A stretch of DNA of 64,000 nt from a virus, in the IMG/VR virus record IMGVR_UViG_3300020530_000006. One strand, given 5' to 3'. Made by a program: the position numbers and the translations under genes. Shown piece after piece: positions 4,201 to 39,726 of the stretch. The notes under the pieces are model-generated. The model made no database searches. It was not told the origin of the DNA and saw only the letters and a program-made list of their open reading frames with translations. The number at the start of each line of letters is the position of its first letter. The stretch's first letter is position 1.

Positions 4201-7200
4201 TTATGGTGGTGGCGTTTCTTCTGGAGAAGCGCATTCAGTAAGTTCATAAATAGTCAAGCATCCATTACTGTCTAAGCCAAGCACTCCAGCACCACCTGAT
4301 CCTAATCCAGCTAAACATTCTTTAAGACCACAAACGTCCGGACATTCTGTTGGTGGAGTAGTTTCTGTAGTCGTTTCTGTAGTCGTTTCTGTAGTAGTAG
4401 TTGTGGTAGTTGTGGTAGTAGTTGGCGTTGTTTCAGTTGTTGTGGTTGTTGTTGTCGTAGTAGTAGAGCACAAACACTCATATGGTTCTTGATTAACAGC
4501 CGAGCTTTCTAAAACAATATATTTGCCATCATTAAAAGCTGCGTATACAACAGTTCCTTTACATAAATTTCTTCCTAGAAAATCTGATATTAAGATTGTA
4601 GAGGCAGTAATATCAGTCATTAAATTTTCGCCATTAGGACCATATATTCCATAATTTTCATAAAATGGACCGTCGTTACTATGAGGATTTAAAAGAATAG
4701 CGTCGGTAGAGCCATATGGTGACAAATCAGATAATAATTGAGCAACGATAATTCTGTCTGATGGTGGGCATACCCAAACACCACGATCTCGATCCCATCT
4801 TAAATCTATTGGACCAGCTGGCCATGTTTTGGGATTCTCTAACCAGTTGGTCATAAAGTTATTTTTGGTACCTTCTGACTTAAATGTTCCAGCCTCGGCC
4901 ATTGCTGGCGAATCTATAATATTTGGAATTGGTTTATTCTCAGTATCATATCCCCAAGATTGTAATACTAATGGACCACGCAAAGCAGCAAACCCATAAT
5001 CTTCTTCATTTTGTTTTTTAGTCTTGTCTTCTAATTCAGAAACTTTATCTCCAAATGCCACATATTGAATATTAAATCCTTCTGCTGAAACTCCCCTACC
5101 TCCCCAATCTTGCAGTAATTTCTTAGATAAAATAGGATTTAAAAATTTTTGATTAATAGGTATTCTTTCCGGATTTCCATTTTTGAAAATGGGAGGCATC
5201 GGTGGTCTACTTTTAGTCAATCTATTTTCAGATTCTTTTGTTCTATCTATTGCTGGAGTCATTGAACCTTTATACTCATTAGCAGAATCTAGATTATATT
5301 TCGAAAATCTGGCCAATCCACCACGAGTTCCACCAAGAGAAATAGGAGTTAAAAGACCATCCATAGACATAATAGCGATATTTTTAAAACCCGCGCCATT
5401 TACAGCATCCTCTATTTCATGTTTAGCATTTAATCCTATCTCATATAATTTCGATCTACTTGCGCTACCTGATGATGGACTTGATGTAGAAGGAGTTCCC
5501 TGTGTAACTTCACATTTGTCTTTAGCTTTTTTTTCTGTGGCCCAGCCGGTTCTGCTTCCATATCCACCACTAGTATTTGTATTAGTGTCTTTATCATAAA
5601 ATCCACCCATGAGTAAAAATCCAGGACTAGCGGCATGTTGCATACCTTGCTGTGGCAAATTTAGTTTATCTAATACTTTAGAAACCGCGGATAAAGCACC
5701 ATATATACCGCTAATCATCTTTCTTCTTTGGTCTTTAATTTTATCAAGAACCTGACTTCTTACAGTATTATTTTCTCTTACCAAAGAAGCTATTGCTTGT
5801 CCATAATCTGCGTATTTTTTAGAAAAGGTTTTAAATGAATAGCTTGTTGTCACACCTCCACTACCATTATAGTTTACATTAATATTATCTACAAAAATTC
5901 CAGCTTGTAAAAAGTATTGAACATTATATCCTGGAGGTTCTGCAAGAGTGAATGATCCATTTTCCGAGATATTAGATGTTCTAATTCCTTGAGACGCCAG
6001 GGCATTGCCCACAGTATATAGTCCTGACCAGCCGCCATAATTCCATGGATTAAGATCAGTAGCAACACTAACTTTTGTTGAGCCAATTGCTCCTCCACCA
6101 CCAACAAATGGACCATAAACATAAACATTGCTTTTCATTGGAACTACTGCATTTTCTATCGCTCCAGCAGCAAAATTCATTTCAAAAATATTAAATGATG
6201 TTACATCAGAGAATCCCTTGTCTCTCTTTATTAATTCATCATATTTATCTGTTCCAAAAAGAACAGCAAAAGCACGAAGTCCTTTATTTAATAAATAATT
6301 TTTTTCTTCTCCAAAATAAGGCAAGCATGCTACAGCACTTTCTGTTTGTATTAAAATTTCTGGAAAAGAAGTATTGGCATTGGTAAAAATAGGATTACCA
6401 GCAGCACTACATTTTAAATAAATTCTATCATTTTTTATAATATATGATGTAGAAGTCATTTCTCTTGGAGCTATTCTGAATTGAGTTTCTTTTCCTGCTA
6501 TAGTTTTTTTGCTACCTCCAAGACTAGAAAAATCAACAAATCCAGAAATTCTATTATCTGGCGTTTCAAATAAAACAGTATCTTGACCAACCACAAGACC
6601 TCTAATTCCTCCACTAAGTTGACCTTCGCTGGGATATCCTCCATCAGAAGGCACATCAGATAAATAATATTGGCCAGTATCACTATAAACAATGCTAGCA
6701 TTACTTCGTGGATATCTACAAAAATTATTCACAGGTATTATATATTTTTTAGCATAATATTCATCAATAAAAGATCTAAACCACTGATATGCCTGATCAT
6801 ATAAAGCATATTTTGCTGCTGAATTAGCTTTTGATGGAATCTTAGATAAACTATTCATTGCTTGTTTCCAATCTATAGTTTTGGAATCACGCTTGAATAG
6901 TACGTTATAAGCATCTATTACACTTTGACCAATACTATCGTTTAAACCAAGAGCCTTAATAATAGCTCCAGATAAGCCTTTTTTATTCATTGTTAAACCA
7001 TACATTAACCACATCTGTTGTGATCCAGAACATATGATTTCTTCTTCAGAAACATAATAATCATCAACACCCAAGTTTATTCCTATAGATTTTAGACTTC
7101 TAACATCCAAAACAAATGTAAAATTACTGTTATATATCCTTTGTGGATTGCCTTTGGAGTCATATCCCATAAACATAGCTATTGGTCTTCTAGAAGCTGA

Positions 7201-8121
7201 CACGTCTGCTAGGTATTGTACTTTATCTCCTATTATAACTTTATTACTAGGTTCGTATATTTCTTGAGATCCTTCTTCACTACTAATGAGCGTACCTGTT
7301 CCTTTAGCTGTACCTATTATATTTTGTATAACTCCTAAGCTTGGCTCTATAGATCTATCTATCAGCCAAACAACTATTGCCGAACCAACAAGCTCTACAA
7401 AATAATCACAAGCTACATCTTGACAGGCTTTATCTATTAGTCCAGACAAAGACTCGCTTTCACCGCTTAGTCTTGACCAAAAAGCTTTGCCTCTCACTGT
7501 CGATGCTAGGAGACTCATTTCTATTCTTAATGGATCTCCTGCGGTTGTATATACTGTTTGTCCTCCTAATGCTTCTAAAACCTTATATGTTTGTACTCCA
7601 TTCTCTGGACTATATCCCGATAATGCTGAATTACCGAAAGCATTGCAAGATCCAACCCTAGGCCAATTTTCAGAATCCTCTCCTGGCGGACAAACAGCAA
7701 CTCCTGGTTCTAAATTATCAAAAACATTTATAAAATTAGCTATTCCATTGATAGGACAGTAATAGTCTTTATACATAACAGTAACATTTTCAAGAATTCT
7801 TTTTGGATCAATAATTTTTATTTTAAAAATAAATCCTGAAGCTGTAATAGAGTATGTTGATTCATTAACAATGCCTCCAAAAACAAGAGCATTGCATTGA
7901 AATCTAACAGCTTTACCTACTGGTGGTAGAATTGTTGGAATAGTAGATACATTATTGCATCCACCGAATAAAAAAGATAATTCTAATGTGGAAGATCCTG
8001 ATCCAACACCTAAATTAAGAGAAAAGTCTTGTAATGTAACAGAGCCGCTTATGGCTGCTCCGCCACCATTTACATAAGTAAAACTAAAAGAGGCTGGTGC
8101 GGAAGTACATAGTGTTGACAT
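4201..8121 (-). CDS. Tail tip / baseplate hub-like protein with Thr-rich linker and Cys-rich C-terminus
   Basis: 1306 aa, last gene of the tail operon; beta-rich N-terminus; poly-Thr linker. Confidence 0.6.
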   Translation of the reverse strand: MSTLCTSAPASFSFTYVNGGGAAISGSVTLQDFSLNLGVGSGSSTLELSFLFGGCNNVSTIPTILPPVGKAVRFQCNALVFGGIVNESTYSITASGFIFKIKIIDPKRILENVTVMYKDYYCPINGIANFINVFDNLEPGVAVCPPGEDSENWPRVGSCNAFGNSALSGYSPENGVQTYKVLEALGGQTVYTTAGDPLRIEMSLLASTVRGKAFWSRLSGESESLSGLIDKACQDVACDYFVELVGSAIVVWLIDRSIEPSLGVIQNIIGTAKGTGTLISSEEGSQEIYEPSNKVIIGDKVQYLADVSASRRPIAMFMGYDSKGNPQRIYNSNFTFVLDVRSLKSIGINLGVDDYYVSEEEIICSGSQQMWLMYGLTMNKKGLSGAIIKALGLNDSIGQSVIDAYNVLFKRDSKTIDWKQAMNSLSKIPSKANSAAKYALYDQAYQWFRSFIDEYYAKKYIIPVNNFCRYPRSNASIVYSDTGQYYLSDVPSDGGYPSEGQLSGGIRGLVVGQDTVLFETPDNRISGFVDFSSLGGSKKTIAGKETQFRIAPREMTSTSYIIKNDRIYLKCSAAGNPIFTNANTSFPEILIQTESAVACLPYFGEEKNYLLNKGLRAFAVLFGTDKYDELIKRDKGFSDVTSFNIFEMNFAAGAIENAVVPMKSNVYVYGPFVGGGGAIGSTKVSVATDLNPWNYGGWSGLYTVGNALASQGIRTSNISENGSFTLAEPPGYNVQYFLQAGIFVDNINVNYNGSGGVTTSYSFKTFSKKYADYGQAIASLVRENNTVRSQVLDKIKDQRRKMISGIYGALSAVSKVLDKLNLPQQGMQHAASPGFLLMGGFYDKDTNTNTSGGYGSRTGWATEKKAKDKCEVTQGTPSTSSPSSGSASRSKLYEIGLNAKHEIEDAVNGAGFKNIAIMSMDGLLTPISLGGTRGGLARFSKYNLDSANEYKGSMTPAIDRTKESENRLTKSRPPMPPIFKNGNPERIPINQKFLNPILSKKLLQDWGGRGVSAEGFNIQYVAFGDKVSELEDKTKKQNEEDYGFAALRGPLVLQSWGYDTENKPIPNIIDSPAMAEAGTFKSEGTKNNFMTNWLENPKTWPAGPIDLRWDRDRGVWVCPPSDRIIVAQLLSDLSPYGSTDAILLNPHSNDGPFYENYGIYGPNGENLMTDITASTILISDFLGRNLCKGTVVYAAFNDGKYIVLESSAVNQEPYECLCSTTTTTTTTTTETTPTTTTTTTTTTTETTTETTTETTPPTECPDVCGLKECLAGLGSGGAGVLGLDSNGCLTIYELTECASPEETPPP
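4355..4470 (-). repeat. Poly-Thr / TTTE low-complexity coding repeat
   Basis: gtagtcgtttct and gtagtt tandem units encoding STTTTTTTTTETTPTTT...TTTETTTETTTETT. Confidence 0.85.
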
Positions 8122-38128: not shown

Positions 38129-38761
38129 TTATAGGCCGTATCTACCTTTAATAGTATTATAATTTTGTAAAACTTCAGACGATGATAGTTCTTTATTATA
38201 TAATTTTAGTGTGGATACTCTACCAGACATATAAGCTGTATCAGCTCGACCAATATAGATATTCCCAGTTGTTGTAACCTTTGATCCAAAAGTACTTACT
38301 AGATTACCATTAACATAAAATAAACTAGATGATGACTTTCTAATAATCGTGGCGATAACCCATGAATTAATAGGAACAGAACTTGTTACTGCTGTAGACG
38401 AAGATCCTGGACCCCAATATGTAACAGAAGCGAAATTGAATATGCTCCACTGCCACGTGGTAGAATTATAAGCATTAGCTCCAGCATATATAATTGGAAA
38501 ATTATTTCTATTGTTCATATAAAAAGAAACTTCCACAGACAGTGGCTCAAGAACATGCGGAACTATTGCATACTGACTTGTTCCATTAAGAGAAAAATAA
38601 TTATTAGTAAAAGTTGGACTATTATATAGTGTAGCATTATATCCTGAACTAGACATATCATTCCAATTAGCTCCGCTGCCAGAATAGCTTTTATTAGATG
38701 CGGCATCTAAGCATAGAATAAGAGAGTCTGTGACTATTTTTGGTCCGTTATTATAGCTCAT
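38129..38761 (-). CDS. LamG/concanavalin A-like lectin-fold protein
   Basis: IVTDSLILCLDA, FSLNGTSQY, FYVNG, LYNKELSSSEVLQNY. Confidence 0.8.
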   Translation of the reverse strand: MSYNNGPKIVTDSLILCLDAASNKSYSGSGANWNDMSSSGYNATLYNSPTFTNNYFSLNGTSQYAIVPHVLEPLSVEVSFYMNNRNNFPIIYAGANAYNSTTWQWSIFNFASVTYWGPGSSSTAVTSSVPINSWVIATIIRKSSSSLFYVNGNLVSTFGSKVTTTGNIYIGRADTAYMSGRVSTLKLYNKELSSSEVLQNYNTIKGRYGL

Positions 38762-38818
38762 TCAATAAAACCTTATTAGTAAAATTGTTTAATGTTTTTG
38801 ACCCATGGCTACCGCCAA

Positions 38819-39014
38819 CATTGTGTCCTATAGTTTCCTATAAGCATGGACTATATCTTCCACGTTTGTGGTGGGGGCGCTCTAGCCTGTTATTAAAACA
38901 AACCTTTTTGTTTCAGGTAGTCTCTACACCTTCACAGAGATGGCTCTGTGCTTGGCTCGGTATTGCCATCAGCATTATCTGTTAAGGTTTCACCGAATTC
39001 ACCCCCAATGGGCC
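38819..39014 (-). ncRNA. Group I intron/ribozyme catalytic core (IA-like, with P7.1), no internal ORF
   Basis: On the - strand: P3 UGGGGGUG/CGCCCCCA; P4 UUCGGU/ACCGAG; P6a CACAGAG/CUCUGUG; R element GAAGGUGUAGAGACUA; P7.1 CCUG..CAGG; P8 CCAC/GUGG; S element AAGAUAUAGUCC; P9 CUUAUAG-GAAA-CUAUAGG; P9.0 AU/AU, then a candidate terminal G at 38819. Confidence 0.85.
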
Positions 39015-39019
39015 TATTC

Positions 39020-39580
39020 TCATATGGTGCTGGGCCTCCTTTCAATATTATTGTTCTTATATACTATGACAATGTTATTTTGAGTAATTTTTCCGTATCT
39101 ATATATTTTAAAAAAATTAGGAATAGGAAGATTAGGAAAATCGCCAGGCTCTTTTTCAATAGCTATACTGTGAACACCCTCTATAAAAAAATAGCTATTG
39201 TTAGAAGGAAAGCTAAATAAAGACTTTAAAATAGATTGAGTAATAAATGTTGGTTCGCTTTCTCCTGTTACTTCTGTCGAATGAACAAGAGATCTAGAAT
39301 TAAGTTCAGAAATGTCGATCACATTATCGGGCTGTTCAAAATTTTTAACACCTTTATATGTTTTGTAGTAATTAAAATTGTCATTCATGGATATATATTG
39401 ATAAACATATCTTCTTATACAAAGATTCTTTCTACTACCTGTTGATCCAGATCCGTAAAGAATAGCTTTTCCTCCACTTTTAAGAGTTGGGGGGGTATAA
39501 AATGAATATGTTTCTCCTACCGGATCAAAATAAGGATCATTGTTGTCAAAATGTGGAGGTTGTCCGTATACATTAGTCAT
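39020..39580 (-). CDS. Hypothetical protein ending just before the group I core
   Basis: 186-aa ORF, TAATG-coupled to the upstream mini-ORF. Confidence 0.55.
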   Translation of the reverse strand: MTNVYGQPPHFDNNDPYFDPVGETYSFYTPPTLKSGGKAILYGSGSTGSRKNLCIRRYVYQYISMNDNFNYYKTYKGVKNFEQPDNVIDISELNSRSLVHSTEVTGESEPTFITQSILKSLFSFPSNNSYFFIEGVHSIAIEKEPGDFPNLPIPNFFKIYRYGKITQNNIVIVYKNNNIERRPSTI

Positions 39581-39726
39581 TATAGTCCAAACCTTCCTTT
39601 AGTAGCATTATAATTGTATAAAATTTCATTTGCTGATAATTCTTTATTATAAACTCTAGTAATAGCAATATCAATACAAAAAACTAATCCATCAGTAACT
39701 ATATCTGGTCCTCCGTATATAGACAT
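39580..39726 (-). pseudogene. 48-aa internally deleted LamG paralogue (N- and C-termini only)
   Basis: MSIYGGPDIVTDGLVFCID-IAITRVYNKELSANEILYNYNATKGRFGL matches both ends of 38129-38761; not in the ORF track. Confidence 0.8.

Follow-up and report, generated by a model that had tools for sequence, protein, structure and literature searches.

A putative guide-first group I ribozyme between the ORF186 and LamG genes of an uncultivated phage

The DNA analyzed here is a viral stretch of 64,000 nucleotides (nt) from the IMG/VR record IMGVR_UViG_3300020530_000006, and the whole of it is referred to below as the window. On its - strand, a conserved RNA element that resembles a group I ribozyme (positions 38791-39015) fills the slot between two genes: the TGA stop codon of ORF186, an open reading frame (ORF) at 39020-39580, lies on one side, and the ATG (38761) of a gene coding for a LamG-domain protein lies on the other. 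The ORF list of the window contains no ORF inside the element. The neighboring genes are all on the same strand and downstream of the terminase gene; in this run of late genes a search revealed no terminator-like site, and sites resembling promoters occurred at chance level. The ribozyme is, as judged from this arrangement, placed in the late structural transcript that leads from the ORF186-family gene to the LamG gene. Coordinates of all features are collected in Table 1, and other loci are referred to by L numbers.

A first-pass annotation of this DNA had folded the - strand by eye into the core elements of a group I intron and had suggested a search with covariance models. The Rfam group I model, RF00028 (gathering score, 50), matched the local - strand sequence at 38827-39078 with 50.2 bits (E 1.1e-11). 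When just 38780-39016 was used as input, the core alone scored 43.8 bits over model positions 41-253, and the homologous element of L044 scored 50.0 bits. The unaided minimum free energy fold included P3, P4-P5, P6a, P9, a short hairpin near the 3' end and the helix GGCCCAU/AUGGGUC, which closes the structure; the stability of this fold (z = -4.78) was reached by none of 200 shuffled sequences. The P3-P9 structure drawn by hand was 99.1% paired across 15 homologues, compared with 36-43% for slid controls, and in the 15-sequence alignment 17 pairs had changed on both sides in a compensatory manner, a count matched by 0 of 500 shuffles. J4/5, J6/7, P7 with its guanosine-binding site and the J8/7 sequence AAGAUA were all invariant and agreed with the Rfam consensus, while the P7.1-type insertion was handled by the Rfam model as an insertion. 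The element includes the features by which a group I core is recognized, namely P3-P9, the P3/P7 pseudoknot, a G-binding P7 and J8/7. By fold, family model and covariation, 38791-39015 is a real group I ribozyme, its catalysis being predicted. Both the search and the pairing statistics bore out the fold that had been drawn by eye.

The borders of the conserved RNA and the pairing between its two ends are what set it apart. Conservation starts abruptly with (A/C)GGCCC, continues through AUU into P3, and after a variable stretch picks up again at GGGUCAAA. Both GGCCC (39014-39010) and GGGUC (38804-38800) were invariant in 18 of 18 full copies of the element, and the same was true of GGGUCAAA, despite a variable hairpin of 10-70 nt between it and the core. 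In the window, GGCCCAU (39014-39008) pairs with AUGGGUC (38806-38800), G39013 facing U38801 and G39014 facing C38800. Conservation of this flank helix among homologues had been named beforehand as a check. The GGCCC/GGGUC portion was indeed conserved, the two outer A-U pairs turned out to be specific to the window, and covariation was impossible, both strands being invariant. The resulting order, GGCCC at 39014-39010, core at 39006-38827 and GGGU↓C at 38804-38800 (the arrow marks a predicted or established point of strand scission), is that of a permuted layout, and it was kept in the 18 copies.

A U.G wobble in P1 marks the 5' splice site of group I introns, and canonical phage introns related to the element of the window supplied the exact form of this helix. 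When 248 nt are taken out of L032, the flanks join into a perfect tRNA-Thr(CGU) gene with the intron after position 36; this fixes P1 as UCGU↓C-AGUAUA-GGCGA and the terminal G at +8 after P9. The intron in L026 splits the gene for the large subunit of ribonucleotide reductase after ...SNLC, with positions 2-212 of the Pfam barrel domain in the 5' part and positions 219-523 in the 3' part, and its P1 is CUGU↓C-AAUU-GGCAG. The format common to L032, L026 and the window is NNNU↓C...GGNNN, that is, three pairs, the U.G and C+1:G; the flanks also agree, with an A after the C and (U/A)A before the GG. Pairing of GGCCC with a GGGU↓C strand located downstream of the core, about 40 nt before the LamG gene, was a central claim of the first-pass annotation, and it stands, with strands invariant in 18 copies and the P1 format of validated relatives.

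The likeness to the canonical introns is not limited to P1. Those of L032 (tRNA-Thr(CGU)) and L026/L029 (ribonucleotide reductase) have cores 71-75% identical to that of the window, and in the P4-P6 block the window is 86-90% identical to the canonical introns of L026 and L028. The P7.1-type insertion, the GAAA-capped P9 and an A-rich 8-nt tail ending in G are shared as well. In the canonical introns, however, the U↓C strand is upstream, a loop of 4-6 nt leads from it to the guide, P2 follows, and a tRNA or protein gene is interrupted. In the window element the U↓C strand is downstream, P2 is absent, two helices (X and Y, see below) are added, and no gene is interrupted. Given the shared P1 format and the core identity with its relatives, the element looks like a canonical intron that was opened in the P1 loop, so that the U↓C strand would have moved behind the core and P2 would have been lost.

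Several other introns were met in the course of this analysis. The same scans returned canonical tRNA-Thr(CGU) introns in L032, L035, L038 and L039. An intron in L018, L019 and L023, with the P1 GGUU↓C...GGACC, lies in the T-loop of a putative tRNA- or transfer-messenger RNA-like gene, where ARAGORN found nothing in 160 nt. The introns of L016, L017 and L021 are in tRNA-Leu genes, and L029 has, like L026, an intron after SNLC in the gene for the large subunit of ribonucleotide reductase. In two copies of the element (L022, ~7290-7370; L040, ~2290-2370), another, partial 3' end of group I type was observed about 40 nt past GGGUCAAA. It consists of ...AAUGAGAUAGUCC, a hairpin and then GCUCUUAAAUCC, and resembles the J8/7-P7-P9 end plus anticodon-loop junction of the tRNA-Leu introns of L016, L017 and L021. 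This partial end may be a relic that bears on the origin of the rearranged element. A wider 15-mer scan for variant guide/target pairs returned chiefly chance coding matches and canonical introns, with no clean covariation. The 15-mer scan also returned two guide-first-looking elements with another type of core, in L152 (~5870-6200, + strand) and L133 (~2255-2600, + strand). Both have a T4-like core with the guide directly before P3 and no obvious P1 or P2, and guide and P3 read UUGGCCAUA-UUGGGUG and UUGGCCGUA-UCGGGUG, respectively.

The region between P9 and the LamG gene contains helices X and Y, which are anatomy new in this analysis. Hairpin X is located between P9 and GGGUC in most copies and is doubtful in a few (L012, L034). 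Its stem changes from copy to copy: UACGC/GCGUA, CGGAC/GUUCG, CUGC/GCAG, UAGC/GCUA and CUGG/CCAG were all found. Helix Y is formed by the bases just before X and bases 3-5 nt past GGGUC; in the window AAUGUU (38822-38817) pairs with AACAUU (38796-38791). Helix Y occurs in four covarying types (UAAUG/CAUUA, UGAUG/CAUCA, UGUAAU/AUUACA and AAAGC/GCUUU), and L163 has a variant of the third in which AUUAUA replaces AUUACA, with a G.U pair. Cognate Y strands gave a mean duplex energy of -4.35 kcal/mol versus -1.90 kcal/mol for non-cognate strands (0 of 20000 permutations), a statistic that is inflated by kinship of the copies but leaves the four distinct pair types standing. The target is predicted to sit in an internal loop of the Y+X hairpin and to form a pseudoknot with the far 5' guide. 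All copies have a G at +8 to +10 after P9, which fits a retained terminal G as seen at +8 in L032. The copies were also inspected by eye for a conserved P10 in which bases 3' of G38819 would pair with those 5' of the guide; such a pairing was not consistent among them and was rejected. In L011, L034, L045, L163 and L164 the LamG start is only ~15-20 nt past the predicted cut, and the leader, ...ACAACAUAUGAG, can pair alternatively with the linker AUAUG, overlapping the start codon; this may be a switch or chance.

Table 1. Features of the ribozyme locus in the window
Feature	Position	Strand	Basis or remark
Whole conserved RNA, ~225 nt (guide, catalytic core and 3' substrate hairpin)	38791..39015	-	Conserved as one block in 18 copies; first (A/C)GGCCC, last the helix Y 3' strand
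Guide GGCCC, internal guide sequence-like; wobble G is G39013	39010..39014	-	Invariant; GGNNN format as in L032 and L026
Linker AUU, guide to P3	39009-39007	-	
P3 5' strand, pairs with 38873-38879	39000..39006	-	7 pairs, 100% paired, 2 compensatory
P4-P5-P5a-P6-P6a domain	38928..38996	-	Compensatory pairs: 2 in P5a, 5 in P6a
P4	38996-38992 with 38961-38957	-	Drawn structure
P6a	38950-38944 with 38939-38933	-	Drawn structure
P7 5' strand (guanosine-binding helix), pairs with 38853-38849	38918..38922	-	Invariant; Rfam consensus AGACUA / AUAGUC
P7.1-type insertion, P7 to P3'; CCUG/CAGG closes an AAACAAA/UUUGUUU stem	38886..38917	-	2 compensatory pairs
P8	38871-38860	-	1 compensatory pair
J8/7 AAGAUA	38859-38854	-	Invariant; Rfam consensus
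P9, GAAA loop	38827..38844	-	7 pairs, 5 compensatory
Helix Y 5' strand AAUGUU, holds G38819	38817..38822	-	Pairs with 38796-38791; covaries
Hairpin X, GGC-GGUA-GCC	38807..38816	-	Hairpin here in most copies, stems differ
Target GGGUC, then conserved AAA; predicted cut U38801/C38800	38800..38804	-	Invariant in 18 copies
Helix Y 3' strand AACAUU, within the LamG 5' leader	38791..38796	-	Pairs with 38822-38817
ORF186, gene directly upstream of the ribozyme in all cases examined	39020..39580	-	32 homologues
LamG-domain gene, downstream	38129..38761	-	PF13385, E 2e-10; start 39 nt past the predicted cut

The possibility that the element is an ordinary self-splicing intron was examined through its neighbors. 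This explanation places the 5' splice site in or before ORF186, and either the 3' exon completes the ORF186 protein, as the first-pass annotation had offered as an alternative, or ORF186 is itself intron-encoded. There are points in its favor: the Rfam alignment draws a weak P1 at 39078-39050, about 20 codons of open frame follow G38819 in this window, and a GGGU occurs 26-39 nt upstream of the guide in L033 and L034. The Rfam P1, however, was rejected: it falls inside coding sequence, in the conserved C-terminal codons of ORF186, contains non-pairs and contributes only ~6 bits. The 21 ORF186 homologues aligned with the protein of the window stop within a few residues of its stop, after a conserved ...YKNNNIERR motif or variants of it. 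L001 and L044 have the stop codon immediately next to GGCCC, so close that a splice site together with a guide could not fit in. Since the homologues all end at the stop position of ORF186, the proposed 3'-exon peptide is unneeded, and it was not conserved after the ribozyme among the homologues. The alignment of 22 proteins sharing the stop position led us to discard an ordinary intron that completes ORF186. An upstream GGGU partner had no consistent position within 900 nt, and L024 had none in that range; this also excluded the version in which a P1 loop encodes ORF186 and the 5' splice site is further upstream. The N-terminus of the LamG protein (MSYNNGPKIVTD...) is complete and conserved among relatives. 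An upstream 5' exon forming a P1 with U.G to the guide was not found, the sole conserved partner being downstream, nor was an interrupted gene that ligation would restore, ORF186 and LamG both being complete. An ordinary intron is, on these grounds, very improbable. In contrast to that alternative, the description of the element as intergenic, free of a homing endonuclease and lacking an upstream P1 agreed with what was found, there being no ORF inside it and no conserved upstream partner.

The element belongs to a family that travels with ORF186. Metagenomes contained 32 homologues of the protein, with identity as low as 38%, and the ribozyme was directly 3' of the ORF186 homologue for 12 of the 12 proteins whose contigs were fetched. 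Further copies came from pattern scans, for a total of 18 full and 2 truncated, and each of them directly follows an ORF186 homologue. The ribozyme cores are 86-93% identical to that of the window, as compared with 55-74% for the neighboring 450 nt of ORF186 DNA. The gene after the ribozyme is LamG in most copies, a short LamG remnant in L006 and L042, and another, non-LamG gene in L003, L022/L040 and L024. A second ribozyme copy was not found in the same phage genome, and a 28-nt pattern found no copies in 185,579 prokaryote (bacterial or archaeal) genomes. Among known phages, a megablast search with 20 kb and a tblastn search with ORF186 returned no relatives, and the best identity of the terminase was 26%; by sequence, known phages are only distant relatives of this one. 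The ORF186 family had no Pfam or PHROG match. An AlphaFold2 (AF2) model of ORF186 was beta-rich (predicted local distance difference test, pLDDT, 73.5; predicted template modeling score, pTM, 0.73) and had no fold neighbors in PDB or BFVD at E <= 0.001. The ribozyme follows ORF186 in every copy examined, and a functional link between both is possible. Just upstream of ORF186, a 48-amino acid ORF (39580-39726, - strand) is an internally deleted LamG gene: its residues 1-26 match the N-terminus of the LamG protein encoded at 38129-38761, and its residues 20-48 correspond to the C-terminal 29 residues of that protein. Comparable LamG remnants of 45 amino acids are located 3' of the ribozyme in L006, L007 and L042.

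We consider it probable that the element is a guide-first (permuted) group I ribozyme outside any gene, which would cleave the late transcript at or next to U38801↓C38800. In the mechanism that we propose, GGCCC/GGGUC would dock in the role of P1, and the bond after U38801 would be attacked by guanosine or GTP from the P7 site. The resulting cut in the mRNA would lie 39 nt ahead of the LamG start codon; the ORF186 message would keep the compact ribozyme as its 3' end, and the LamG message would begin with an extra G. Closure of the short X-GGGU segment to a ring in a second step is possible but doubtful. Action in trans, which the first-pass annotation had also raised, is conjectural. In its full form such an element would be a natural permuted intron-exon device carrying out both transesterifications, with release of the ring and with helix Y clamping the splice sites together. 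Attack by GTP after U38801 would then yield a LamG mRNA with a 5'-triphosphorylated G, a 'primary-transcript-like' end, and the freed GGGU-3'OH would attack after G38819, producing a ring of 18 nt here and of up to ~70 nt in L024. We regard this two-step version as a minor possibility.

Some observations weigh against guide-first cleavage. The RF00028 score sits at the threshold, and two filtered scans, one of them the whole-window gathering scan, missed the element. P2 is missing, and the presumed P1 is tethered to the core by AUU only. The guide and target strands never vary, so that covariation neither supports nor contradicts their helix, and GGCCC/GGGUC could be a structural closing helix or P10 instead. 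Hairpin X abuts both splice-site candidates in some copies (L044), with linkers of 0-2 nt, which is awkward for exon ligation. As for G38819, which the first-pass annotation had put forward as the terminal G, its offset of +8 after P9 is the one found in L032, but it is paired within helix Y; in other copies the G-C pair is at differing positions of Y or the G is just past Y. Its location in a covarying helix weakens both the role as terminal G and the circle.

The explanation nearest to guide-first cleavage takes GGCCC/GGGUC as P10 rather than P1. The element would then be an orphan 3' intron part whose terminal G is G38804, and its only reaction would be 3'-splice-site hydrolysis, at G38804↓G38803 with no addition of GTP. 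The two predicted cuts are within 4 nt of each other, the outcome is the same (a cut ~40 nt before LamG), and the conservation data fit both explanations alike. A precedent for such a pairing may be seen in the unrelated-looking guide-first element of L152, with its T4-like, IA-type core, where the guide UUGGCCAUA pairs with GGUCA right after a typical ...AUAACAUAAUUG 3' end. In the element of the window, however, the guide bases involved are those that make P1 in the validated relatives, G.U and C+1:G occupy the P1 positions, and inspection by eye revealed no clear P10 in those relatives. Directly before GGGUC the copies differ (AU, AA, A, G or none) and offer no conserved P9.0-like context, and upstream of X they keep a G roughly +8 to +10 after P9, in agreement with the terminal G of the relative. 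These points make the P10 explanation distinctly unlikely. The helix could also belong to a fossil, that is, a non-catalytic group I fold kept as a structured 3' untranslated region or spacer, closed by GGCCC/GGGUC as the permuted P2 that the first-pass annotation had offered as an alternative, which might block 3' exonucleases or insulate the translation of its neighbors. An invariant closing helix without covariation agrees with this, as does the lack of P2 and of a normally placed P1. Yet every strand of the catalytic core is invariant and as in the Rfam consensus, and a stabilizer needs neither an invariant G.U at the wobble position of P1 nor the conserved CAAA that follows. Moreover, 86-93% identity has been kept while neighboring proteins diverged to ~40%. 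A fossil is, in our judgment, unlikely.

GIR1, found in the twin-ribozyme introns of Didymium and Naegleria, is a group I descendant that cuts 3' of its core and makes the 5' end of a downstream mRNA. The element of the window is like it in outline, being group I-derived, with no upstream P1 and with a predicted 3' cut that would form a downstream 5' end. This shared logic, which extends to pairing between the 5' and 3' ends and to a downstream ORF, raises the possibility of a lariat-capping branching ribozyme that puts a small 2',5' lariat on the LamG mRNA. The element differs from GIR1 in its ordinary P3/P7 group I core, which is close to those of splicing introns, and in its predicted chemistry, guanosine attack at a G.U wobble as opposed to branching. 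Membership in this class was rejected because no GIR1 model of Rfam matched at E <= 10 and the sequence that follows the candidate G differs among copies and holds no conserved three-base lariat fold; we take a GIR1-like activity to be highly improbable. A riboswitch-controlled type was rejected as well, as neither a window-wide scan at the gathering score nor a local scan around the element at E <= 10 detected a riboswitch family.

To our knowledge, group I ribozymes in nature are almost only introns that must restore a gene. A tandem of a c-di-GMP-II riboswitch and a group I ribozyme in a 5' untranslated region of Clostridioides difficile, where the ribozyme controls a gene downstream of it, was reportedly described by Lee et al. 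in 2010. As in that tandem, the ribozyme studied here lies in an untranslated region and restores no ORF; in C. difficile, however, P1 is in its normal upstream place and a riboswitch lies next to the ribozyme, whereas here the P1 strand is downstream and no riboswitch was detected. Puttaraju and Been are said to have given the original description of permuted intron-exon (PIE) constructs in 1992. In these constructs the transcript order is core and terminal G, a short 'exon' and finally the U of the 5' splice site, which pairs with the guide; the element shares this order. The element is natural and conserved, and it is opened in the P1 loop rather than in a peripheral loop as PIE is; its 'exon' is just 18-70 nt long and enclosed by the clamp helix Y, and its product is predicted. 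Engineered PIE group I constructs make circular RNA (e.g., PMC11394858). Circularly permuted group II introns occur naturally in bacteria (PMC8637638), and the same article cites Chi et al. 2019 for a mushroom-coral mitochondrial group I intron that is back-spliced. Like the element, both are natural permutations of self-splicing ribozymes outside or across the normal exon order. The former belong to a different ribozyme class, while the coral intron, as cited there, is giant and mitochondrial and still restores an ORF; neither is phage-borne or a stand-alone element for mRNA processing. In the searchable literature, no group I ribozyme that is naturally permuted or guide-first was found for phages or bacteria.

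The identity of the RNA (86-93%), set against ~40% in the neighboring proteins, argues that the phage needs the ribozyme. If guide-first cleavage is true, the element would be the second natural re-use of the group I fold for the formation of mRNA 5' ends, after the eukaryotic lariat-capping ribozyme, and the first such re-use in viruses of bacteria. The PIE design for circular RNA would likewise have a counterpart in nature. The element is a testable case of ribozyme-driven processing within a late phage operon.
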